Under the pieces are notes generated by a model. It made no database searches. It was not told the origin of the DNA and was given only the letters and a program-made list of their open reading frames with translations. A stretch of 64,000 nt of DNA from a virus: the IMG/VR virus record IMGVR_UViG_3300005613_000030, positions 1 to 64,000 of that record. The stretch is one strand, 5' to 3'. This document shows positions 630-41,364 of the stretch, in pieces. Numbering within the stretch: the stretch's first letter is position 1; each line of letters starts with the position of its first letter. Position numbers and translations under genes: made by a program.

Positions 630-2444
630 ATGGCAACTAGAACACATATAGCTAAGGTTACAGAAGGTGTAACTGAAAAAGCGGTACAAATGGTACCTTC
701 TGATCCTGGATCACCAGTTGATAGTCAAATTTGGATTAACACATCATCAAGAGAAATCAAGTACTTTGATGGAACAGTGGTACACAATTTAATTGAAAGT
801 GATGGATTAGAAAGGGTTGATCAACCTTTAGGTGTTTCGCCAATAGATGGAGCAACTGGAATTCAATTGTCAGCTACTCTAACTGCTTCTGATTTCATAC
901 CAGCTTATGATTTGAATACTCATGCCAGCTCAACTTGGGAAGTAAGAGATGCTGCTGACAATTTAGTGTTTTCAAGTATAGACGATGCTGCTAACTTAAC
1001 TAGCATATTAGCGACTGGCTTATTAGGTAACGTCACTTACAAATGGCGAGTTCAATATAAAGACATCAAAGGTTATACGAGTGCTTTTAGCGAGTATATT
1101 GAATTCAGTACAATACCTGTTTATATTGAAACTCCATCAATCACTTATCCAACTACTAGTCCAGATCTAACTGATGTTGACTTTGGAACTGATTTCACAA
1201 CTAGTACTTTCAATGTATTTGGTGCTAGTAATAATCACATCTCTACTCGCTGGCAAATAGCTCTAAGCTCAAATCCAACTTTCGATGTACTTGTATTTGA
1301 TAGTCTAGATGACCCTACTAACTTAGAGTCAATAACTCTAGATAGTGACGACTTTGAAGTGAGCACTGAATACATACTTAGAGTAAAACATACAGATAGT
1401 AACTATGGTGACTCAGCTTGGAGTGCAGTTAGAACTTTCACAACAGCTGCACAATTTGATATAGTACCGTTATTAGCAGTTGCTCACCAAAGTGCCCCTT
1501 ATATAACTGTCTATGATCAAGACATCGATACCTTTACTAAGCTAGCTGATCCAGCTAGTTTGCCAGCTAGTACTAGCTATAGCTGTTCTTTCAGTTCTGA
1601 TAACACTTATTTAGCAGTTGCTCATTTTACTTCCCCTTATATAACCATATATAAGCGAAATGGAGATACTTTTACTAAGTTAGCTAATCCAGCTAGTTTG
1701 CCACCTAGCCATGCATACGGTTGTAATTTCAGCTCTGACGGCACTTATTTAGCAGTTGCTCATAGTGGTGCCCCTTACATAACTATATATAAGCGAAGTG
1801 GAGATACATTCACTAAGCTAGCTGATCCAGCTACTTTGCCAGGTGGTATTGGCTTTAGTTGTGAGTTTAGCTCTGACGGCACTTATTTAGCAGTTACCCA
1901 TGATAATACCCCTAATATAACTATATATAAGCGAAGTGGAGATACCTTCACTAAGTTAGCTAATCCAGCTAGTTTGCCAAGTAACGATGGCTTTGGCTGT
2001 TCTTTCAGTTCTGATAATACTTATTTAGCAGTTGCTCACCAAAGTGCCCCTTACATAACTATATATAAGCGAAGTGGAGATACCTTCACTAAGTTAGCTA
2101 ATCCAGCTACTTTGCCAGCTAATACTAGTTATGATTGCGCTTTCAGTTCTGATGATACTTATTTAGCGGTTGCTCATAGTGGTGCCCCTTACATAACTAT
2201 ATATAAGCGAAGTGGAGACACATTCACTAAGCTAGCTGATCCAGCTGCTTTGCCAGCTGACAATAGTAATAGCTGTTCTTTCAGTTATGACGGGGTTTAT
2301 TTAGCAGTTGGACATGGAAATGCTCCTTACATAACTATATATAAGCGAAGTGGAGATACCTTCACTAAGTTAGCTAATCCAGCTACTTTGCCAGCTAATA
2401 CTAGTTATGATTGCGCTTTCTCAAAAACTGGTTTTCCACAATAA
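630..2444 (+). CDS. Putative receptor-binding/tail-fibre protein: N-terminal anchor, two Fn3-like domains, 7-bladed beta-propeller
   Basis: Fn3-like motifs YKWRVQY..SAFSE and EYILRVKH..SAWS; seven 46-aa repeats at 1473-2444; strong AGGAGG SD. Confidence 0.75.
   Translation: MATRTHIAKVTEGVTEKAVQMVPSDPGSPVDSQIWINTSSREIKYFDGTVVHNLIESDGLERVDQPLGVSPIDGATGIQLSATLTASDFIPAYDLNTHASSTWEVRDAADNLVFSSIDDAANLTSILATGLLGNVTYKWRVQYKDIKGYTSAFSEYIEFSTIPVYIETPSITYPTTSPDLTDVDFGTDFTTSTFNVFGASNNHISTRWQIALSSNPTFDVLVFDSLDDPTNLESITLDSDDFEVSTEYILRVKHTDSNYGDSAWSAVRTFTTAAQFDIVPLLAVAHQSAPYITVYDQDIDTFTKLADPASLPASTSYSCSFSSDNTYLAVAHFTSPYITIYKRNGDTFTKLANPASLPPSHAYGCNFSSDGTYLAVAHSGAPYITIYKRSGDTFTKLADPATLPGGIGFSCEFSSDGTYLAVTHDNTPNITIYKRSGDTFTKLANPASLPSNDGFGCSFSSDNTYLAVAHQSAPYITIYKRSGDTFTKLANPATLPANTSYDCAFSSDDTYLAVAHSGAPYITIYKRSGDTFTKLADPAALPADNSNSCSFSYDGVYLAVGHGNAPYITIYKRSGDTFTKLANPATLPANTSYDCAFSKTGFPQ
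1143..1447 (+). repeat. 305-bp direct repeat, copy 1 (second Fn3-like domain); copy 2 at 3048-3352
   Basis: High nucleotide identity from acttatccaactactagtccagat to agaactttcacaacagc. Confidence 0.9.
1473..2438 (+). repeat. Seven tandem 138-nt coding repeats (propeller blades)
   Basis: Units start at 1473, 1611, 1749, 1887, 2025, 2163 and 2301 (ttagc[a/g]gtt...). Confidence 0.95.
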
Positions 2445-2461
2445 GATACAATTAATAGTTC

Positions 2462-2488
2462 TGGTAGTCTCTATTTAAAAGACTACCA
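2462..2488. promoter_or_regulatory. Intergenic stem-loop
   Basis: TGGTAGTCT-N9-AGACTACCA. Confidence 0.5.
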
Positions 2489-2537
2489 ACTAAAGAAACA
2501 ACAAAACACGCTAATAAGCACAATATAGGAGATTAAC

Positions 2538-4007
2538 ATGGCTAAGACGCATATAGCAAAAGTTACGGAAGGTGTAACTGAAAGAGCAGTGCAAATGGTA
2601 TCAGCTGATCCAGGGTCACCAATAACTAATCAACTTTGGGTTGATACAGCTAATAATATAGTTAAATATTTTGACGGTTCTGTTGTACAAGTATTAAGCC
2701 AAAGTGGTCAATTAGATAGAATTGAAGCACCAGTTGGGGTTTTCCCAACTGAAGGGTCAACTGAAGGTGGAACATCCATTGGTTTAATTTCTAGCACTTT
2801 TAATCCTGTATATCCATCATTTACTCATGCTAGCTCAACTTGGGAAGTAAGAGATGCTGCTGACAATTTAGTGTTTTCAAGTGTAAATGACGCAGCTAAC
2901 TTAACTAGTATCTCAGCTACTGGTTTAAGCGTAGGTGTTGCCTATAAATGGCGAGTACTATATAAAGATAGTGAAGGTTTTATAAGTGATTTTAGTCCTT
3001 ACGTTAATTTCACTACTAACACTATATACACTGAAACGCCAGTTGTTACTTATCCAACTACTAGTCCAGATCTAACTGATGTTGACTTTGGAACTGACTT
3101 CACAACTAACGCTTTTAACGTATTTGGTGCTAGTAATAATCACATCTCTACTGACTGGCAAATAGCTTTAAGCTCAGATCCAACTTTCTCTTCACCTATC
3201 TTTGAGAGCTTAGACGATGCTGTAAACTTAGAGTCAATAACTTTAGATAGTGACGACTTTGTAGTTAGCACTGAATATATACTTAGAGTAAGACATACAG
3301 ATAGTAACTACGGTGACTCAGCTTGGAGTGCAGTTAGAACTTTCACAACAGCCTCTGAATTCTTACCACCAGCAGAAGCTTTTTGGGATTTTACAGACGG
3401 TAATCTTTTAAATGATAGTTCAGCAAATAATTATATATTGACTAATAATAATCTTGTAACTACTGGAGCCGTAGGAGCAGTATTTAATGGATCAGGTGCT
3501 CTTGCAAGTGGACAACCTTACTTATCTGAAAATGCTGAATCTATTTTGAACAGCATCCCAATTGGATTTGCAGTGGAAGCGTATTTTAAAATTAATAGTG
3601 CACCTTCAGTTGAATTTAACTTAGTGCGACAAGACAATGATGCCTCTAATTCGTTTACTTTTTGGATTAGAAGTGGTTTAGATATTCGAACTCGATATAA
3701 ATACAACGGAACTGTTGAATCTTCAACAGGTACTTCTCAGCTATCTACAGGCGTGTGGTATCATGTGATTTATAGTTGGTTTGCTACTACAGGTCTTCAA
3801 ATATATTTAGATAATTCTCTAGAGATCAATGAGCCCACTAAAACTATTGTGATGGGAGGTGGCGGTAGCACGACGGAACCGTTTACTATTGGAGCTGGCT
3901 ATGGTGGTGCCTATGGTATGAATGGGGAGATAAAATATGTACGTGTGTATAAAACAGAATTATCTGCAGCTGATAGAACAGCGCTATATGACAACAGAAC
4001 GTATTAA
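2538..4007 (+). CDS. Putative receptor-binding/fibre protein: same stalk as 630-2444 with a C-terminal LamG/ConA-like lectin domain
   Basis: Shared THIAKVTEGVTE N-terminus and Fn3 stalk; LamG-like motifs GVWYHV, LQIYLDN, FTIGAG, MNGEIKYVRVYKTELS. Confidence 0.8.
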   Translation: MAKTHIAKVTEGVTERAVQMVSADPGSPITNQLWVDTANNIVKYFDGSVVQVLSQSGQLDRIEAPVGVFPTEGSTEGGTSIGLISSTFNPVYPSFTHASSTWEVRDAADNLVFSSVNDAANLTSISATGLSVGVAYKWRVLYKDSEGFISDFSPYVNFTTNTIYTETPVVTYPTTSPDLTDVDFGTDFTTNAFNVFGASNNHISTDWQIALSSDPTFSSPIFESLDDAVNLESITLDSDDFVVSTEYILRVRHTDSNYGDSAWSAVRTFTTASEFLPPAEAFWDFTDGNLLNDSSANNYILTNNNLVTTGAVGAVFNGSGALASGQPYLSENAESILNSIPIGFAVEAYFKINSAPSVEFNLVRQDNDASNSFTFWIRSGLDIRTRYKYNGTVESSTGTSQLSTGVWYHVIYSWFATTGLQIYLDNSLEINEPTKTIVMGGGGSTTEPFTIGAGYGGAYGMNGEIKYVRVYKTELSAADRTALYDNRTY

Positions 4008-11124: not shown

Positions 11125-11595
11125 ATGAATATCAAGAAATTCAAAAAAGGTGTAAAATCTAAATTATCTAAAAATTTTGCTTCAATAGAATTTGATTGCT
11201 CGTGTAAAAAATGTACTGAAACATTAATTGATTTAGATCACGTCATTAAATTGCAAAAACTAAGAGATGATTTAGGGTCATCAATTAAAATTAATTCTGG
11301 ATATCGTTGCCCAGAGCATAATGCTAATATTGGTGGTGCTAAACAATCTCAGCATGTATTAGGAACAGCTACCGATATAGTTGTTAAAGATATGGCACCC
11401 GATGAAGTAGCAGATTCTTGTGAATACTTCAAAGGACTAGGTCGTTATGACAGTTTTACTCATATAGATTCAAGAGATAGAATTAGTAAAGCTAGATGGG
11501 ATAATAGGAGCAAAAAGGAACATTTGCCAAAAGGACCTAGCAACGAAGAAATTGATAAAATGCTACAAGATATTGAAGATGATTTACTCAAATAA
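11125..11595 (+). CDS. Peptidase M15A (Zn D-Ala-D-Ala peptidase fold), probable endolysin
   Basis: NSGYRC..HN..IGGA..SQH..G.A.D and FTHID motifs. Confidence 0.85.
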   Translation: MNIKKFKKGVKSKLSKNFASIEFDCSCKKCTETLIDLDHVIKLQKLRDDLGSSIKINSGYRCPEHNANIGGAKQSQHVLGTATDIVVKDMAPDEVADSCEYFKGLGRYDSFTHIDSRDRISKARWDNRSKKEHLPKGPSNEEIDKMLQDIEDDLLK

Positions 11596-13402: not shown

Positions 13403-14161
13403 GTGATTGATAGAAAAGATTATCATGTGATTACGTTAAAAAATGGTAAGCATCGTACTACATATCGATATTATTGCGATAGTTGTAGTGCAGATAGAGG
13501 CTATCACCTTATGGATAGTAGAAAAAGTAAGCAATTATGTAAAACTTGTTCATACGCTGTTCGCAGTCAAAGAATAATACAAAGTAATAAAGAACCGCAT
13601 GATGGTTCGTGGATATGGCAGTATCGATCTAGTGGAAAAAGATATAAGAAGTTTATAGCGACCTGTAGTTCCTGTGGCAAAGATAGAGGATATCAATGCA
13701 AAAAAGATTCTTATAGATTATGTGGTGATTGCAGTTTACAAAAAAATACAGGTATGTGGAGTAAAGGTCACGTGCCATGGAATAAAGGTAAAAAATTAAG
13801 TAAAGAGTATAGTATTAAAAATAGTTGTGCACAGCGTCAAATAGAGATTAAAGATTTTGATTGCTTTACTACTCACAAGAATGATAAAGATCGCTCTATT
13901 TTAAAAAAGAGCAATCTTCATATTGAATGTTTTAAAAAAGCGGATTACACATGTCAAGTATGCAGTACTAAAGGCGTAACATTGAATGCTCACCATTTAA
14001 ATAACTTTGCACAATATGAAGATCAACGTTTTATTCTGGAGAATTTAGTATGTCTTTGCAAACAATGCCATAAAAAAATACATAAAGAATACGGGAATTC
14101 AACGACAAGATATAACTTTGAAGAGTATAGGAGAAAATATGAGTATCTACGAAAAAAGTAA
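13403..14161 (+). CDS. HNH homing endonuclease with Cys-rich N-terminus and PWNKG (NUMOD3-type) motif
   Basis: CQVC..LNAHH..NLVCLCKQCHKKIH; GTG start 13403 is approximate. Confidence 0.8.
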   Translation: MIDRKDYHVITLKNGKHRTTYRYYCDSCSADRGYHLMDSRKSKQLCKTCSYAVRSQRIIQSNKEPHDGSWIWQYRSSGKRYKKFIATCSSCGKDRGYQCKKDSYRLCGDCSLQKNTGMWSKGHVPWNKGKKLSKEYSIKNSCAQRQIEIKDFDCFTTHKNDKDRSILKKSNLHIECFKKADYTCQVCSTKGVTLNAHHLNNFAQYEDQRFILENLVCLCKQCHKKIHKEYGNSTTRYNFEEYRRKYEYLRKK

Positions 14162-15818
14162 AGCAAAAGATATTATTGCAGATAAAGATGAAATTGATAA
14201 AATAGTATCTGAAACAATGGATAATATGGCTGCTATTATTGGTCGAACTCTCGGTCCCGGAGGTAATCCTGTTTTAATTGAACGTGATTCTCAAGCGCCT
14301 TTGATTACAAAAGACGGAGTAACAGTTGCTAGATCTTTAGGTGTACATGACGCAGCATCACATGTGATTGTGGAATCCGCTAAAGAAATCTGCTTAAATA
14401 CAGCGAAAGATGCTGGAGATGGAACCACCACTGCTATTGTTCTTGCCAACGCTTTAGTTAAGGCTGGTAGGAAATTTTTAACAGATAATCCAAAATATAA
14501 TCCACAAAGAGTTGTTCAAGAATTACAACAGATGTACGACACAGTTATTATTCCTTTTTTAAAAGCGGAAGCAATTGATGCAGATACCGAAGCAAAATTA
14601 CTACATGTAGCTGAAATTTCCGCCAATGGGGATTCAAGCATAGCAAAAGTTGCTGTTGAAGCGGTATTGACTGCAGGGGAAGATGGTACAGTTCTATTAG
14701 AAGAAGCTCAAGGTAATGATATGAGAGTAGAGACTATTGAGGGATATGTCATTACAAACGGCTTAAAAGAGTTTGGACAAATTGGTCCTGTATTTGTGAA
14801 TGATAACGCTAATCAGCAATGCAAAATGGATCAAGGGTATGTGTTCCTATATGATGGCAGTATTACTGACTTAAAAGCATTAGGTTTAGTGCAGCAAGCA
14901 ATTGAAGGGACAGAATTATATGGTTCACCGATTATAGTTATGGCTCATGAATTTTCTGATAGTGTAATGGATAAAATTGCTCAAGCCATTAAAGGTGGAA
15001 TTACAATTTGTCCAGTTAAAACACCACGCTCTGGTGTACCGAATTCTAGATCTATGTTTCTTAAAGATATGTCTGCTTACACTGGAGCTCGTGTATTTGA
15101 TCCAGGTGATATTGCTGAAATTGAGCCAGAGCATTTTGGTGCATTTCAATCAGCTAAAAGTAACATGTATGAAACCTTCATATTGTCAATACCTGATACA
15201 GAAGCTATTGATGTGAGAGTTGAAGAGCTTAAAGGGTTAGCAGAGACATGTCATTCTGATTTTGATAAGATGTTTATAAAAGCAGCTATCGGTAAATTAA
15301 TTGGTGGAATTTCTACCATTTGGGTTGGTGGTGCTTCAGATCTTGAAGTTAGAGAGAAAAAAGCAAGAGTAGAAGATGCAGTAGAAGCTGTTAGATCAGC
15401 GATTGCTGAAGGTATTGTCCCTGGAGGTTGCTTTATACACCAGAAATTAGCGAATCAATTATGCGATAACAAAGATAGTAAGAAGTCGTGGAGTATTATG
15501 GTATCTGCATTGCAGGTTCCACTGAATCTATTGCTAACTAATTGTGGCGAGGATCCTAAAGAAATTAGAGCAGGGTTGAAGCGAAATAAGAATAAAATAT
15601 TTGATGCTAATAAACATGCTTTTGTTGATCCACATAAAGCTGGAATAATTGAACCAACTAAAGTTATTCGTGTTTCTTTAGCTAATGCGTTATCTGTGGC
15701 TAGTTTACTGATTAGTCTTGGCGGTGTTGTATGTGTTCCTCGTGATTCTGGTTTAGAAAATCAATTAGCTTTATCTAAACAGGCTTTTAAAGATATGATG
15801 AGTGATATGCCGAGATAA
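14139..15818 (+). CDS. groEL: Phage-encoded GroEL-like chaperonin
   Basis: TLGPGG; ITKDGVTVA; AGDGTTTA; ISANGD; EKKARVEDA; EGIVPGGG-like motif. Confidence 0.95.
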   Translation: MSIYEKSKAKDIIADKDEIDKIVSETMDNMAAIIGRTLGPGGNPVLIERDSQAPLITKDGVTVARSLGVHDAASHVIVESAKEICLNTAKDAGDGTTTAIVLANALVKAGRKFLTDNPKYNPQRVVQELQQMYDTVIIPFLKAEAIDADTEAKLLHVAEISANGDSSIAKVAVEAVLTAGEDGTVLLEEAQGNDMRVETIEGYVITNGLKEFGQIGPVFVNDNANQQCKMDQGYVFLYDGSITDLKALGLVQQAIEGTELYGSPIIVMAHEFSDSVMDKIAQAIKGGITICPVKTPRSGVPNSRSMFLKDMSAYTGARVFDPGDIAEIEPEHFGAFQSAKSNMYETFILSIPDTEAIDVRVEELKGLAETCHSDFDKMFIKAAIGKLIGGISTIWVGGASDLEVREKKARVEDAVEAVRSAIAEGIVPGGCFIHQKLANQLCDNKDSKKSWSIMVSALQVPLNLLLTNCGEDPKEIRAGLKRNKNKIFDANKHAFVDPHKAGIIEPTKVIRVSLANALSVASLLISLGGVVCVPRDSGLENQLALSKQAFKDMMSDMPR

Positions 15819-15822
15819 TAGT

Positions 15823-16380
15823 ATGATAAAAGAATGTAGTAAATGTAAAAATCACAAGGATGTGATTCTCTTTAACAAGAATAAGAAAAACACTACAACT
15901 GGTCGATCATCATGGTGTAAAGCGTGTATTAAAAAACACGATGCTAGTAAGAATTATAAACCTATTTATCGTGGCACAAAGATATGTCAAACATGCAAGA
16001 TAACTAAAAAAGCCACTGAATTCCATGTAAATAAAAAACATAAAGATGGATTAGAGCGACGATGTAAAAAATGCAATATGTTGCGAAAAGACAATAATCA
16101 TTATAGAAATAAATATGGTATAACATTAGATGACTATAACAACTTAATTAAAAGTCAGAATTATCAGTGTGCTATATGTAAAACGGTAGATCCAGGTGTT
16201 GGAATTAATCGTTTTCACGTTGATCATAATCATTCCACTGGTGTAGTTAGAGGATTATTATGTTCGAATTGTAATCGAGCATTAGGTCAATTTAAAGATG
16301 ATATATCGATTCTTGAATCAGCAGCGGAATACATAAGAAATAACTTGGAGACAAAACATGATTTCAACGATCCTAAATAA
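15823..16380 (+). CDS. Endonuclease VII-family (His-Me) endonuclease, probably homing type
   Basis: KYGITL..Y..Q..CAIC; HVDHNH.TG.VRGLLC..CN..LG. Confidence 0.85.
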   Translation: MIKECSKCKNHKDVILFNKNKKNTTTGRSSWCKACIKKHDASKNYKPIYRGTKICQTCKITKKATEFHVNKKHKDGLERRCKKCNMLRKDNNHYRNKYGITLDDYNNLIKSQNYQCAICKTVDPGVGINRFHVDHNHSTGVVRGLLCSNCNRALGQFKDDISILESAAEYIRNNLETKHDFNDPK

Positions 16381-17062
16381 TAGATATATTCAAATAGTTA
16401 TTGCGTTATTAATTGGTTGCGCTATAGGAGCCATATTTTATCCTTCTAAGACAATTAAAGAAGAGATAGAGCAGAAATATGAAAGACAATTACAGCAGAA
16501 AGAAGAGGAACATATTAAGGCTTTTTATGAGTTATCTACAAAACACACCGAAGAGATTAATATTCTAAAATCGAAGACCGAAGAGACAACTAGTAAAATC
16601 CATTCTTTAACACAAGAGAATTATGAATTACGTCAAAAATCTGAAGAATCAACTCTTCGCATAGTGAAACCCGATGGCACTATCGTAGAAAAAACATATA
16701 AAAAATCCGAAACTGAACAAATATCACAGATCACAACAGAAATAAAATCTGAATTTAGTCGTAAGGTTAAAGAGATCGAGCAGAAGTGGACAACTATACA
16801 TAAAGAGAGAGTTAGTAGAATAAAGATAGAGCATGATAAAGTGATAGCAATTAAAGAAACAGAGATAGCGCAGTTAAAAAAGAAAACAACTATAGAAATC
16901 AATAAACGTAATTTTGGTATTTATGGTGGATATATGACTAATAAGAATTATTACAGCGGTGTGCAATATGATGTCTTTGGGCCAGTATTTTTAGATGCTC
17001 ATGTTCAATCAGATTTTCAAGATAATGCAGCCGGTGGTATAGGCTTTGGTTTTAGGTTTTAA
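16358..17062 (+). CDS. Membrane-anchored coiled-coil protein with C-terminal beta-strand anchor (spanin/trimeric-autotransporter-like)
   Basis: N-terminal TM segment, a long charged coiled coil, and four amphipathic strands ending GIGFGFRF. Confidence 0.6.
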   Translation: MISTILNNRYIQIVIALLIGCAIGAIFYPSKTIKEEIEQKYERQLQQKEEEHIKAFYELSTKHTEEINILKSKTEETTSKIHSLTQENYELRQKSEESTLRIVKPDGTIVEKTYKKSETEQISQITTEIKSEFSRKVKEIEQKWTTIHKERVSRIKIEHDKVIAIKETEIAQLKKKTTIEINKRNFGIYGGYMTNKNYYSGVQYDVFGPVFLDAHVQSDFQDNAAGGIGFGFRF

Positions 17063-17065
17063 ATT

Positions 17066-17416
17066 ATGGCAAAGAACAGATATAAATGTAATCAATGTAG
17101 TAATGAAGAAATTAAATACACAGCTATTAAAGAGTATGCTTGTGAGTGTGGTGGCTGCATGAATAGGCAGATGCCGAAGTTATCCGGTGAAGCTCAAGTG
17201 AATGAAGTAGTTGATAAATATAGAAATATTAAGCATAAATCTTATCAAAAGAAAACAATTCAAGATAGGAAATTAGTACATTACTGGAAAGTTAAAGTAC
17301 CTCAAATGGTTAATTCCGGTGTATATAGCTTACAAACAATGATAGAAATGGGATGGGTTTATTATAATGAAAAAGAGGAGTTATGCACACGCACGTCTCC
17401 TCCAGCAGCTAAGTAA
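17066..17416 (+). CDS. FmdB-like zinc-ribbon protein
   Basis: YKCNQC...CECGG.M.R. Confidence 0.6.
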   Translation: MAKNRYKCNQCSNEEIKYTAIKEYACECGGCMNRQMPKLSGEAQVNEVVDKYRNIKHKSYQKKTIQDRKLVHYWKVKVPQMVNSGVYSLQTMIEMGWVYYNEKEELCTRTSPPAAK

Positions 17417-17426
17417 AGGAGTTTTT

Positions 17427-18188
17427 ATGAAGCATTTATTATTAACTATATTATTAACTACGTTGTTAACTAGTTGTTCTAGTGTCACTGCTTCTAATCA
17501 GGGCATTATATTTAACACCACTGATAAAGTTAATGTTGTTAATAAGACAATTTCATACGAGTTTAATGATACTAATGATTTTTTTGTGGTCACAGCAAGT
17601 TATGACGAAGCGCTATTAGAACGTTTTATTAAAAAGGTAGCAACCTTTAAAAAGAAAACTATGTATATTTATTATGATAGTCCAGGTGGATCAGTTATTT
17701 CATTAAATAGGATGTTAGGTATCATGGAAAATTCCGATATAAAATTTATCTGCATGGCTCGATTTGCAGCTTCAGCTGCTTTTACAATGTTTGAAATGTG
17801 TGATGAACGATATTTACTTGCTGATGGTATACTCATGTCACATGATGCTAGTATTGGGCTGCAAGGTAATATACATACAATTAAAGGTATGCTAGATATG
17901 TATATATTAATGCTAGAAACAATTGAAAGAAAGATAGCTAAACGCATGAAGTTATCTTTTGAAGAATATGATTACTTGAAAAGTAGAGAGCTATGGATGA
18001 ATATAGATTTAGCAAGAAAATACAATGCAATTGATGGTGAAGTTAAAAAGCTTAGTTGCTCTGAGAAATTAATAAAGCAAACAGTCGCTAAAGACGTATC
18101 AGTAATGACTATATTAGGGCCAATGACCGTTACCGAAACATTTTCAGCATGTCCATTATTGACTGCACCAATTAAAAACGACAAATAA
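17427..18188 (+). CDS. ClpP/crotonase-family serine protease with lipoprotein signal
   Basis: Lipobox LTSC after MKH plus hydrophobic core; DSPGGSV; AASAA (Ser); LMSH (His); AIDG. Confidence 0.8.
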   Translation: MKHLLLTILLTTLLTSCSSVTASNQGIIFNTTDKVNVVNKTISYEFNDTNDFFVVTASYDEALLERFIKKVATFKKKTMYIYYDSPGGSVISLNRMLGIMENSDIKFICMARFAASAAFTMFEMCDERYLLADGILMSHDASIGLQGNIHTIKGMLDMYILMLETIERKIAKRMKLSFEEYDYLKSRELWMNIDLARKYNAIDGEVKKLSCSEKLIKQTVAKDVSVMTILGPMTVTETFSACPLLTAPIKNDK

Positions 18189-29042: not shown

Positions 29043-29510
29043 ATGGCAGATCAAAAAAGTGCCATTGATAAAATCCATAAAGCTGTTGATGTGACTAAGC
29101 TCGTAAAGTACACTAACAAAATTAAAGATATAGGGAGTCTTCAGAAAATGATGGCTCCCTTATATTTAAGGGATTTTATTGAGGCAATCGATGTTTCTTC
29201 GACTATGCTATCTATGGCAATTCATGCTGATCATAAAGCTGATGCTTTAGTTAAAAATGCAGAAGCTATTGCGTTTTTAGATAAAGCAGGGGATTATCTT
29301 AAAGCTAAGGGAATTAAAGATTCAGCAGAAGCACGTAAACGATATATAGATATTGACAGCGATGTGGTAGCAGCTAAAGATGAAAAAGCTAGAACTACTG
29401 CACTGGTTAGTTTCCTTAAAAATAAGGTGCGTGTTTTTCAAGATGCGCACAATGCTATTAAGAAAATAGCATATGGTGATCAAAATATGACTGATTGGGA
29501 GGGCATGTAA
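29043..29510 (+). CDS. Putative UvsY-like recombination mediator
   Basis: Helical protein with 'RKRYIDIDSDV'; located between SSB and RecA. Confidence 0.5.
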   Translation: MADQKSAIDKIHKAVDVTKLVKYTNKIKDIGSLQKMMAPLYLRDFIEAIDVSSTMLSMAIHADHKADALVKNAEAIAFLDKAGDYLKAKGIKDSAEARKRYIDIDSDVVAAKDEKARTTALVSFLKNKVRVFQDAHNAIKKIAYGDQNMTDWEGM

Positions 29511-29881
29511 TGAAATATTTAATTGTATTGTTGCTGTTAATTGGATGTACTGATAATGAAACTGTAATGAATAAATTTGGGACTCTTAAAGAAGAATGTC
29601 AACAACTAGCTAAAAAATTAAATACAGAATATGATATTCATGGAAATTTAGAGCAGTCTAAATGTTGGATAGTTGATACACGAGTGGACTATAGGTATTC
29701 TATTGGCAATATAGATGCTACAATTGGTGCTAGTCGTGCCCTAGAAATACAAGAAAAATTAAAAACCAATATTGAATTTCATAACTGTGTTGAGATAAAA
29801 TGCGCAAAGACATGTGATTCTGAATACACAACACATAAAACATATTCTGAGTGTGCAAAGCAGTTTAATAGGGAGTATTGA
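29510..29881 (+). CDS. Putative lipoprotein
   Basis: MKYLIVLLLLIGC lipobox-like signal. Confidence 0.6.
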   Translation: MKYLIVLLLLIGCTDNETVMNKFGTLKEECQQLAKKLNTEYDIHGNLEQSKCWIVDTRVDYRYSIGNIDATIGASRALEIQEKLKTNIEFHNCVEIKCAKTCDSEYTTHKTYSECAKQFNREY

Positions 29882-29883
29882 TA

Positions 29884-30213
29884 ATGGATAAGCAATTAAT
29901 ACAAGATGTTGTTAATACAATATCACCAGAGTTAACATGGTTATTTATTCAAGGCTTTATGGCATTGTTTATCTTCTCTTTTATGAGAAACCTTTCTACA
30001 GCAGTTGCGAACTATCTTAAACTTCGTTTCTCATTATGGGGTTTGAACACAAAATTAAATATCGAAGGTAAAATCGGATATATACGGGATATTACATTTA
30101 AAGAGGTAATTATCCATGTAAGCAATAAAGAAACTATGTATATACCGATTGATCGTTTTTTGATATTAACTAAGACAGTGTATCATAACGGCTATACAGG
30201 AGAAGATAAATGA
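29884..30213 (+). CDS. Small membrane protein with MscS-like beta domain
   Basis: TM helix, then LNIEGKIGYIRDITFKEVII...MYIP. Confidence 0.55.
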   Translation: MDKQLIQDVVNTISPELTWLFIQGFMALFIFSFMRNLSTAVANYLKLRFSLWGLNTKLNIEGKIGYIRDITFKEVIIHVSNKETMYIPIDRFLILTKTVYHNGYTGEDK

Positions 30214-30530
30214 TATGCAATAGAATCTGTGGAATATTATGTATACTACTAGTGATAGCTGCTTGCACATATGTGTTTATTAAAGGGCCTTCTATATATG
30301 ATAAAGAAACTGTATTCTCTTATGGTCAGAAAGTTAAAGTGATAAAAGGATTTTATAAAGGTTATAACTGTTTCACTGTTCAGCATCAATACACTGATAT
30401 ACGCATATTTACTACTGATAGATATTATTATGCCCTATCAAGCAAAGATAAGAATCTCAATATGATAATGGTATATGGCGATGAATTAGAATTAGAGGTT
30501 GATGGAGAACAATGTGATGCAATACAATAA
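30210..30530 (+). CDS. Hypothetical membrane protein with KOW-like motif
   Basis: N-terminal TM; GQKVKVIKGFYKG. Confidence 0.6.
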   Translation: MICNRICGILCILLVIAACTYVFIKGPSIYDKETVFSYGQKVKVIKGFYKGYNCFTVQHQYTDIRIFTTDRYYYALSSKDKNLNMIMVYGDELELEVDGEQCDAIQ

Positions 30531-41166: not shown

Positions 41167-41364
41167 ATGATACCGCAGACACATACGAGTATAACGATTT
41201 GTAGCTTACCATTATTATTTACTATATTTTTTATTCTATTGAAATTTACTAACTACATATTGTGGCCATGGTTTTGGATATTATCACCAATGTGGATGTC
41301 CTTTATATTGATCGTATTACTTATATTGATTCATTTAAGTATTTTTATATATAAAAGCGTATAA
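41167..41364 (+). CDS. Small two-TM membrane protein
   Basis: IFFILLKF..YI.WPWFWILSPMW pattern; AGGAG SD. Confidence 0.75.
   Translation: MIPQTHTSITICSLPLLFTIFFILLKFTNYILWPWFWILSPMWMSFILIVLLILIHLSIFIYKSV

Follow-up and report, generated by a model that had tools for sequence, protein, structure and literature searches.

The spanin Rz has the layout CC1-linker-CC2 (PMC6139136), and unimolecular spanins have no periplasmic cysteines, unlike the two-component ones (PMC6139136). About 13% of the phages of Gram-negative hosts, including Bacteroides phage B124-14 and Croceibacter phages, have no identifiable spanin (PMC6139136). We analyzed the gene at 16358-17062 (+) of a 64,000 nt stretch of viral DNA, referred to here as the window, which comprises positions 1 to 64,000 of the IMG/VR virus record IMGVR_UViG_3300005613_000030 (86.6 kb, estimated 51% complete). 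The gene had been predicted from the letters alone to encode a one-component spanin that bridges both membranes by an inner-membrane anchor, a coiled coil and a YadA-like outer-membrane beta anchor. The translation of the open reading frame was exactly the 234 amino acids (aa) quoted in this original prediction. We found that the protein belongs to a widespread phage family and combines a membrane helix, an antiparallel helical hairpin and a C-terminal beta-meander that covaries with the membrane helix. Our best reading, which is tentative, is a single-chain spanin-like lysis protein (a functional spanin analogue) that would work by hairpin collapse.

A word-indexed search with the protein retrieved 13 relatives with 36-61% identity. 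When the alignment of these relatives was used for an exhaustive hidden Markov model (HMM) search, 185 representative clusters at 50% identity were obtained, 79 of them with E values below 1e-30. Full-length members comprise 146-257 aa and have kept the same parts: an N-terminal hydrophobic helix, a helix, a KPDGT turn with nearly invariant P105, D106 and G107, another helix, and a four-strand tail ending with R/K-F/L. Since the described features are conserved in all these clusters, they are not due to chance. The start codon was backed by N-terminal conservation in the family alignment (A1). One candidate member from an Acidobacteriota metagenome-assembled genome (MAG), L004, was rejected as a false positive. 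Scans of the whole protein against Pfam and PHROG gave nothing above noise, only coiled-coil artefacts. The best PHROG match was phrog_9841 (Rz-like spanin) with E=0.031, and it covered the membrane helix and the beginning of the coiled coil. Neither tblastn with three family members as queries (50,697 records of cultured phages) nor Foldseek with the full-length model gave a match, and a search for longer proteins bearing the beta domain found none. The sole source name that we found for the family was 'YhcB (DUF1043)', which reflects the membrane helix and the coiled coil. The combination of membrane helix, alpha-hairpin and beta-meander had no significant match in Pfam or PHROG and no match to a solved structure in these searches. 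We concluded that the gene represents an unannotated, widespread and well-defined family of phage envelope proteins.

AlphaFold2 (12 close homologues) predicted helices at residues 9-27, 29-95 and 116-182, a beta-hairpin (97-103/109-115) between the second and the third of them, and four strands at the C-terminus. As listed in Table 1, we refer to the two long helices as CC1 and CC2. Residues 10-27 form a hydrophobic helix with a mean Kyte-Doolittle value of 2.44, and the family statistics revealed a net charge of +1.3 on its N-terminal side versus +0.3 after the helix. A membrane helix with the N-terminus inside, followed by a periplasmic coiled-coil domain as in i-spanins, is predicted from these data. 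The helix is probably part of the mature protein and not a cleaved signal peptide, since it is conserved (G20, G24, Y28, P29) and covaries with the beta domain. Cys21 (16418-16420) creates a lipobox-like LIGC inside the membrane helix that is unique to the window copy, and relatives have I or V at this position. The motif is probably due to chance; it could make this one copy a lipoprotein. A scan for promoters and terminators gave results at chance level.

The original prediction had described about 150 aa of mostly coiled coil. This region is indeed helical, but it is not one coil: two helices of 67 residues are split by the KPDGT beta-hairpin. In about 12 length classes of the family the distance from the membrane helix to PDG equaled the distance from PDG to the beta domain (arm-length classes 85/85, 81/81, 77/77, 75/75, 73/73, 59/59, 51/51, 49/49, 43/43, 40/39). 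We analyzed covariation by mean-field direct-coupling analysis (DCA) of 172 sequences, and the analysis was rerun on the 131 sequences without gaps in the helices. A mean DCA score of 0.51 was obtained for the antiparallel diagonal i+j=212, as compared to ≤0.21 for other antiparallel diagonals and ≤0.11 for parallel diagonals, and this was also the case for the gap-free set. Among the top 100 pairs, 20 of the 30 pairs between helix 1 and helix 2 fell on sums 209-213; of these, 94-118 lies at the tip, and 35-177 and 29-182 lie at the base. The tip hairpin was recovered by its covarying pairs (Table 1) and served as positive control for the method. The analysis was based on ~130-170 effective sequences, so that phylogenetic effects are possible for single pairs; the patterns along the diagonals are nevertheless robust. 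A single heptad-like hydrophobic seam runs along each helix, and in the i+j=212 register the seam of CC1 faces that of CC2. As the matched arm lengths, the covariation and the facing seams agree, we concluded that CC1 and CC2 form an antiparallel hairpin tipped by the conserved KPDGT beta-turn and not a straight rod. The full-length AlphaFold model, built from a shallow alignment, was an extended rod (pTM 0.27), for which the exhaustive aligner VIA matched only straight coiled coils (160 residues). We took this model as evidence for neither state.

Covariation also connected the membrane helix with the beta sheet. Pair 22-207 was the fourth strongest of the whole protein (z 8.9), with the residue combinations A-F, T-W, V-F and L-W. 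Further pairs were 18-190, 14-194, 19-188 and 26-200/206/210, and helix positions 14, 18, 22 and 26 form one face that lies antiparallel to strand 1. Together with pair 29-182 at the hairpin base, the helix-sheet pairs locate the two hydrophobic elements at one common end of the molecule. The co-evolved structure is therefore not a static rod whose ends lie in different membranes, and the rod bridging the periplasm, as it was originally proposed, also conflicts with the matched helix lengths and the antiparallel covariation. This leaves two readings: the ends may come into contact only when a collapse has brought the membranes together, or both ends may be located in one membrane at all times.

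When the last 62 residues were modeled alone (51 homologues), the pLDDT was 87.9 and four long antiparallel strands were predicted at 186-192, 198-207, 210-218 and 224-232. The hydrophobic helix and the four C-terminal strands of the original prediction were thus recovered in the models and in the conserved parts of the 185 clusters. The column statistics showed a strict two-residue alternation in the beta domain. One face is aliphatic/aromatic (186/188/190/192, 200-206, 210-218, 226-234), the opposite face is glycine-rich/polar (G187, E189, G191; Y199, H201, S/T203, D205; F211, G213, H215, E217; G227, G229, G231, R233), and both strand ends carry aromatic residues. Strands 1 and 2 are joined by a turn of four residues, and G208-P209 makes a tight turn from strand 2 to strand 3. 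Length variation is confined to the loop that links strands 3 and 4. Residues of the polar face covaried strongly (189-201-213; D205-R233 with charge swaps; 215-227) and therefore pack against one another. Covariation of strand 1 with strand 4, which would indicate closure of a barrel by oligomerization, had a consistent register (sums 418-422) but was weak (z ~4). The terminal Phe, pointed out in the original prediction, is a trait of the family: 97% of the 188 members with at least 140 aa end with F, L, W or I, and no residue follows this position in any of the 209 aligned members.

The beta domain was also compared to known structures. Foldseek (350,542 chains) placed 2lme (YadA), 9vnj (AtaA), 2gr7/3emo (Hia) and 2gr8 within the top six, with non-significant E values of 0.17-0.37. 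In the VIA comparison these anchors reached Z values of 4.7-4.9 and were tied with gasdermin and complement pores, OmpA-type barrels and soluble meanders. Four YadA_anchor clusters were among the structure neighbors in the ESM Atlas (TM ≤0.47). The YadA_anchor HMM (PF03895) gave no match at E≤1 in the whole 86.6-kb genome, with a control E. coli genome above the cut-off, and no match at E≤10 among 51 C-terminal domains of the family. A search of the beta-domain profile against PDB sequences yielded chance matches only, with the designed transmembrane barrel 6x9z at E 0.72. Like the trimeric autotransporter anchors, the protein has four strands per protomer, a preceding helix (116-182) and a terminal aromatic/hydrophobic residue. 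The proposed YadA-like anchor is retained for its membrane-anchor traits and its place at the top of the Foldseek results, but since the HMM did not match, we consider it a resemblance to YadA-type anchors and not a membership. Judged from the models and the column statistics, the C-terminal domain looks like a membrane beta-anchor or a segment of a membrane beta-barrel.

A lipobox-containing open reading frame embedded in the gene, overlapping it, or ≤400 nt downstream of it was found in none of the 77 family loci. The proposed independence from a lipoprotein partner is in agreement with this result. No Cys is present after residue 30 in 180 of the 188 members. As the original prediction had suggested, we searched for conventional spanins elsewhere: none of nine membrane-protein candidates from this genome and its complete relative G001 showed an Rz-like PHROG match. 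A 188-aa membrane protein (positions 81813-82379 of the genome) was ruled out as i-spanin, since its membrane helix is followed by a run of basic residues that indicates a cytoplasmic domain. The literature searched contained no description of a beta-anchored spanin. Three consecutive small envelope genes at 29495-30530 (+) encode a cysteine-rich lipoprotein with an LIGC lipobox, a single-pass membrane protein with a beta-rich tail, and a signal-anchor protein. G001 lacks this block, its flanking genes being adjacent there, which suggests an accessory (moron-like) insertion. Its absence from G001 and the lack of a PHROG match also ruled it out as a clade-wide conventional spanin.

Short variants of the protein (165-191 aa) are encoded on small contigs, and their gene context differs from that in the large phages. 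Four loci (L066, L110, L111, L112) have the order tail-fibre-like genes, gene for a 78-86-aa protein, studied gene, genes for a 62-81-aa and a 94-115-aa protein, large terminase gene. The 5'-truncated locus L046 shows the same order downstream of the studied gene. The 78-86-aa upstream neighbor is composed of an N-terminal coiled coil and a C-terminal membrane helix (tail-anchored), and its gene overlaps with the studied gene by 4 nt in L110 and L111. On the other short contigs L062, L065 and L081, a protein of the same tail-anchored coiled-coil architecture adjoins. Weak matches to XhlA (PF10779) were obtained for four of the nine tail-anchored neighbors tested against Pfam (E 0.003-0.7), and weak matches to the PHROG 'hemolysin' families 1193/937 for three of the six neighbors tested (E 2.7e-4 to 0.075). 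In the lysis by PBSX, the membrane protein XhlA cooperates with the holin XhlB and the endolysin XlyA (PMC5589764). The position of the gene in the small phages is lysis-cassette-like. In locus L063 the studied gene follows genes for a 1090-aa protein and a glycine-zipper protein that resemble internal virion proteins of podoviruses.

In L066 the gene upstream of the pair belongs to phrog_1128 (papain-like), and the same PHROG was matched by a Peptidase_C92 protein of the genome studied here. In the region 69602-71121 of the genome (L093:5602-7121), beyond the window, this permuted papain-like amidase (E 3e-19) is encoded 0.6 kb from a 106-aa tail-anchored coiled-coil protein with a weak XhlA match. 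The amidase has no counterpart in G001. The pair of Peptidase_C92 and XhlA-like protein may be a second lysis module besides the M15 endolysin candidate at 11125. The 62-81-aa protein of the small phages has an acidic N-terminal part and, in most copies, a lysine-rich stretch; its gene overlaps the stop of the family gene and precedes the terminase gene. It could be a small terminase subunit or another lysis factor.

In the large phages (~170 kb) the gene order around the studied gene was essentially invariant, as seen in 42 IMG/VR loci that nearly all belong to this clade: dUTPase, methylase-like gene, chaperonin, studied gene, 116-aa cysteine-rich protein, SbcC-like gene, a variable gene, and RuvC. 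The gene was present in all five searched relatives that are 91-100% complete according to CheckV, and one of these five had a second, marginal match (E 1e-3) with an internal stop. The lysis-cassette-like context is that of the short members; the window gene does not lie in a lysis cassette.

The only matches in ~186,000 species genomes were phage contigs binned with one Flavobacteriaceae MAG and one Cytophagales MAG. The capsid protein is SPO1-like, and the large phages are myoviruses of the SPO1-like type. The chaperonin has its closest relative in Myxococcus phage Mx1, followed by those of the Bacteroides DAC phages. The family profile did not match in Mx1 or in Bacteroides phage DAC16, the nearest cultured relatives as found via capsid protein and chaperonin. 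In Mx1 the order is chaperonin, a 93-aa gene, and SbcC, and the studied gene is missing. A diderm host, as was originally expected, is likely in view of the MAG bins and of the closest cultured relatives, which have Myxococcus and Bacteroides as hosts; it probably belongs to the Bacteroidota.

The functional spanin analogue that we tentatively prefer corresponds in its architecture to the i-spanin half, with an N-terminal transmembrane helix and two helical segments joined by a hinge. In the mechanism that we infer, each end would have its own location: the N-terminal helix would anchor the protein in the inner membrane with the N-terminus inside, and the four-strand meander would oligomerize and insert in the outer membrane as a small beta-barrel, replacing the lipoprotein anchor of the known spanins. 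In this precursor state the protein would be extended. After removal of the peptidoglycan by the endolysin, the helices of equal length would zip into the antiparallel hairpin, which would pull the beta-anchor onto the inner-membrane helix and fuse or rupture both membranes to complete lysis. The end-state would be much like the hairpin of class I viral fusion proteins. It is possible, though rather doubtful, that the family forms a third spanin class with an inner-membrane helix and an outer-membrane beta-barrel segment in one polypeptide and with membrane fusion by zipping of equal helices. If so, this class would be convergent with the class I viral fusion proteins and would explain lysis by 'spanin-less' phages of Bacteroidota and other hosts.

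Several observations weigh against a spanin-like function. The contact of helix and sheet is more simply explained by both elements being in one membrane. The single seam of each helix is already satisfied within the hairpin, nothing indicates an extended precursor state, and the shortest members with arms of ~40 residues could hardly span the periplasm as helices. The beta-barrel proteins of the presumed hosts have heterogeneous and not uniformly aromatic C-termini, so that the terminal residue is at most a putative assembly signal. Significant similarity to any spanin was not found in Pfam or PHROG, where the Rz-like match mentioned above was the best. Since the genome is only ~51% complete, a conventional spanin could lie in the missing half, and G001 carries an uncharacterised cluster of lipoprotein and membrane-protein genes at 2440-3464. 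The window and ~40 large-phage loci place the gene in a replication/recombination block and not beside lysis genes. The XhlA homology of the neighbor in the small phages is weak and absent for three small-phage copies, and the cross-profile links are weak.

The main rival, a different lysis protein of the inner membrane, i.e., a holin similar to the T4 holin T, with a single N-terminal membrane helix and large periplasmic domain, or a partner or regulator of a holin, is somewhat unlikely. The hairpin would then be the resting structure that extends ~100 Å into the periplasm, the beta-meander would pack on the membrane helix in or at the inner membrane, and oligomers would make or gate the lethal hole. 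This would explain most simply why covariation puts membrane helix and beta sheet in contact and the helices in a permanent-looking antiparallel coiled coil. It would also fit the conserved GxxxG motif of the membrane helix, the translational coupling to a small tail-anchored membrane protein in the small phages, the fact that no clear holin was identified in this genome, and the size and topology of the protein, which are similar to those of T4 holin T. However, beta-barrels are not known from the inner membrane of bacteria. This reading would leave unexplained the obligatory terminal F/L/W, the glycine lining of one face and the aromatic residues at the strand ends, all traits of outer-membrane proteins, and no holin family, holin T included, was among the Pfam and PHROG matches at E≤0.1. 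We consider it unlikely that the protein acts in the envelope of the infected cell without a role in lysis, e.g., as superinfection-exclusion factor or as mimic of an efflux-pump adaptor, with the hairpin tip docking on a periplasmic or outer-membrane component of the host (TolC-like channel, BAM, peptidoglycan). Such a role would be in agreement with the large-phage loci, in all of which this core gene is co-oriented with early/middle-type genes (chaperonin, SbcC, RuvC), and with the hairpin tip KPDGT as the most conserved element. The succession of membrane helix and alpha-hairpin recalls the membrane-fusion-protein adaptors of efflux pumps. The small-phage position by terminase and tail-fibre genes, with coupling to the tail-anchored protein, speaks against such a role. 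Moreover, PDG is a generic tight-turn motif whose conservation may be purely structural, and nothing similar to an adaptor family was revealed by the Pfam, PHROG and PDB-sequence searches.

A role like that of trimeric autotransporters, as a secreted or outer-membrane protein, or a role as virion ejection protein that inserts in host membranes upon infection, appears quite improbable, even though autotransporter anchors were the best structural neighbors of the beta domain and the L063 neighbors resemble virion proteins. The YadA_anchor HMM did not match, and the Pfam scan found no head or stalk repeat of autotransporter type in the protein. The phage surface autotransporter that the original prediction gave as its alternative is also unlikely, as the N-terminal helix is conserved and co-evolves with the beta domain and the rest of the protein, which speaks against a cleaved signal peptide. 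For the large phages, ejection proteins of this kind are not expected in SPO1-like myoviruses. We also considered a prefoldin- or Skp-like chaperone, suggested by a helical hairpin with a beta body next to a chaperonin gene, and rejected it as unlikely because the N-terminal 18-residue helix is fully apolar and the small phages have no chaperonin.

Table 1. Location of the studied gene, of the parts of its product, and of neighboring genes (positions in the window unless a locus is named).
Feature	Position	Strand	Remarks
Studied gene	16358..17062	+	234 aa + stop; founding member of an unannotated phage-only family
N-terminal transmembrane helix, residues 10-27 (predicted)	16385..16438	+	G20-x3-G24 invariant, Y28-P29 conserved in close relatives
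Helix 1 (CC1), residues 29-96	16442..16645	+	heptad-like hydrophobic seam; antiparallel covariation with CC2
Tip beta-hairpin, residues 97-115	16646..16702	+	around near-invariant P105-D106-G107 turn; covarying pairs 97-115, 99-113, 101-111
Helix 2 (CC2), residues 116-184	16703..16909	+	length matches CC1 across the family; covariation with CC1
C-terminal four-strand amphipathic beta-meander, residues 185-234	16910..17059	+	ends G-x-G-x-R-F
GroEL-like chaperonin	14118..15818	+	invariant upstream neighbor in ~170-kb phages
Endonuclease VII-type homing endonuclease	15802..16380	+	inserted between chaperonin and studied gene; overlaps gene start by 23 nt; absent there in most relatives
116-aa cysteine-rich (zinc-ribbon-like) protein	17066..17416	+	invariant downstream neighbor in ~170-kb phages
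Peptidase_M15_3 endolysin candidate	11125..11595	+	156 aa, single domain, 5 kb upstream, same strand; ortholog in complete relative G001; context only
62-81-aa protein of small phages	L066 4101-4289, L065 1672-1902, L110 4148-4375, L111 6398-6643, L112 6314-6544, L046 451-696		

Some further genes deserve mention. Homing endonuclease genes of the endonuclease VII/HNH type occur at varying points around the chaperonin and the studied gene in loci L003-L045. The 116-aa protein (CxxC...CxC) is always encoded between the studied gene and SbcC in the large phages, at the place of the 93-aa gene of Mx1. It may belong to the SbcC nuclease module, as no SbcD-like gene was seen there. The 253-aa protein encoded at 17427-18188 (+) joins a lipoprotein signal (MKHLLLTILLTTLLTSC) to a serine protease domain of ClpP/SppA-like type (PF00574, E 1.5e-9). 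For a phage, a lipoprotein protease of the periplasm is unusual, and the G001 counterpart shows only 29% identity. Among structural genes, the gene at 41167-41364 (+) encodes a 65-aa protein with two membrane helices (phrog_1374, E 1.9e-8), which is a possible class II-type holin candidate.

A cationic peptide was reportedly found as the route by which phage phiKT breaches the outer membrane. Apart from this peptide, outer-membrane breach by spanin-less phages is largely open, and the family offers a concrete, testable candidate, a compact protein of 150-250 aa without lipoprotein. With such a protein, phages may be able to break the outer membrane at lysis in a new manner that needs no lipoprotein. 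The covariation displays the hairpin end-state that was postulated but never seen for membrane fusion driven by spanins. Even if the lysis reading is wrong, a well-defined, widespread and unannotated phage envelope protein remains.

Among the known systems, the T4 holin T (class III holin) shares with the studied protein one N-terminal membrane helix, a large periplasmic domain, a size of ~220 aa and the origin from a large myovirus. There is no sequence match, and the periplasmic domain of holin T is globular and not a 100-Å hairpin with a beta-meander. The trimeric autotransporter anchors (YadA 2lme, Hia 2gr7/3emo, AtaA 9vnj; PF03895) likewise have a helix leading into four antiparallel strands, a glycine-rich inner face and a terminal aromatic residue. 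Unlike these, the studied protein has no exported passenger, and its N-terminal helix appears to be retained. Phage T1 gp11 is also a single polypeptide that is proposed to touch both membranes and lacks periplasmic cysteines. It has, however, an N-terminal lipoprotein anchor for the outer membrane, a C-terminal helix for the inner membrane and a beta-rich periplasmic part, whereas the studied protein has the opposite polarity and a helical middle part, and a beta-barrel segment would serve as its outer anchor. With the class I viral fusion proteins there is no homology, and the single seam per helix can be satisfied by a two-helix hairpin; the likeness to their post-fusion trimer of hairpins lies in antiparallel heptad-repeat helices that unite both membrane-inserted ends. 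Lambda Rz/Rz1 differs by its Rz1 lipoprotein, for which no similar partner was found in the 77 loci, by conserved periplasmic cysteines, by its sequence, by the lack of a C-terminal beta domain, and by a flexible linker in place of the conserved beta-hairpin as hinge. It shares with the studied family the type II inner-membrane anchor and two helical segments joined by a hinge, the collapse of the helices is proposed to join the membranes, and the short family members are encoded where spanin genes usually are located.

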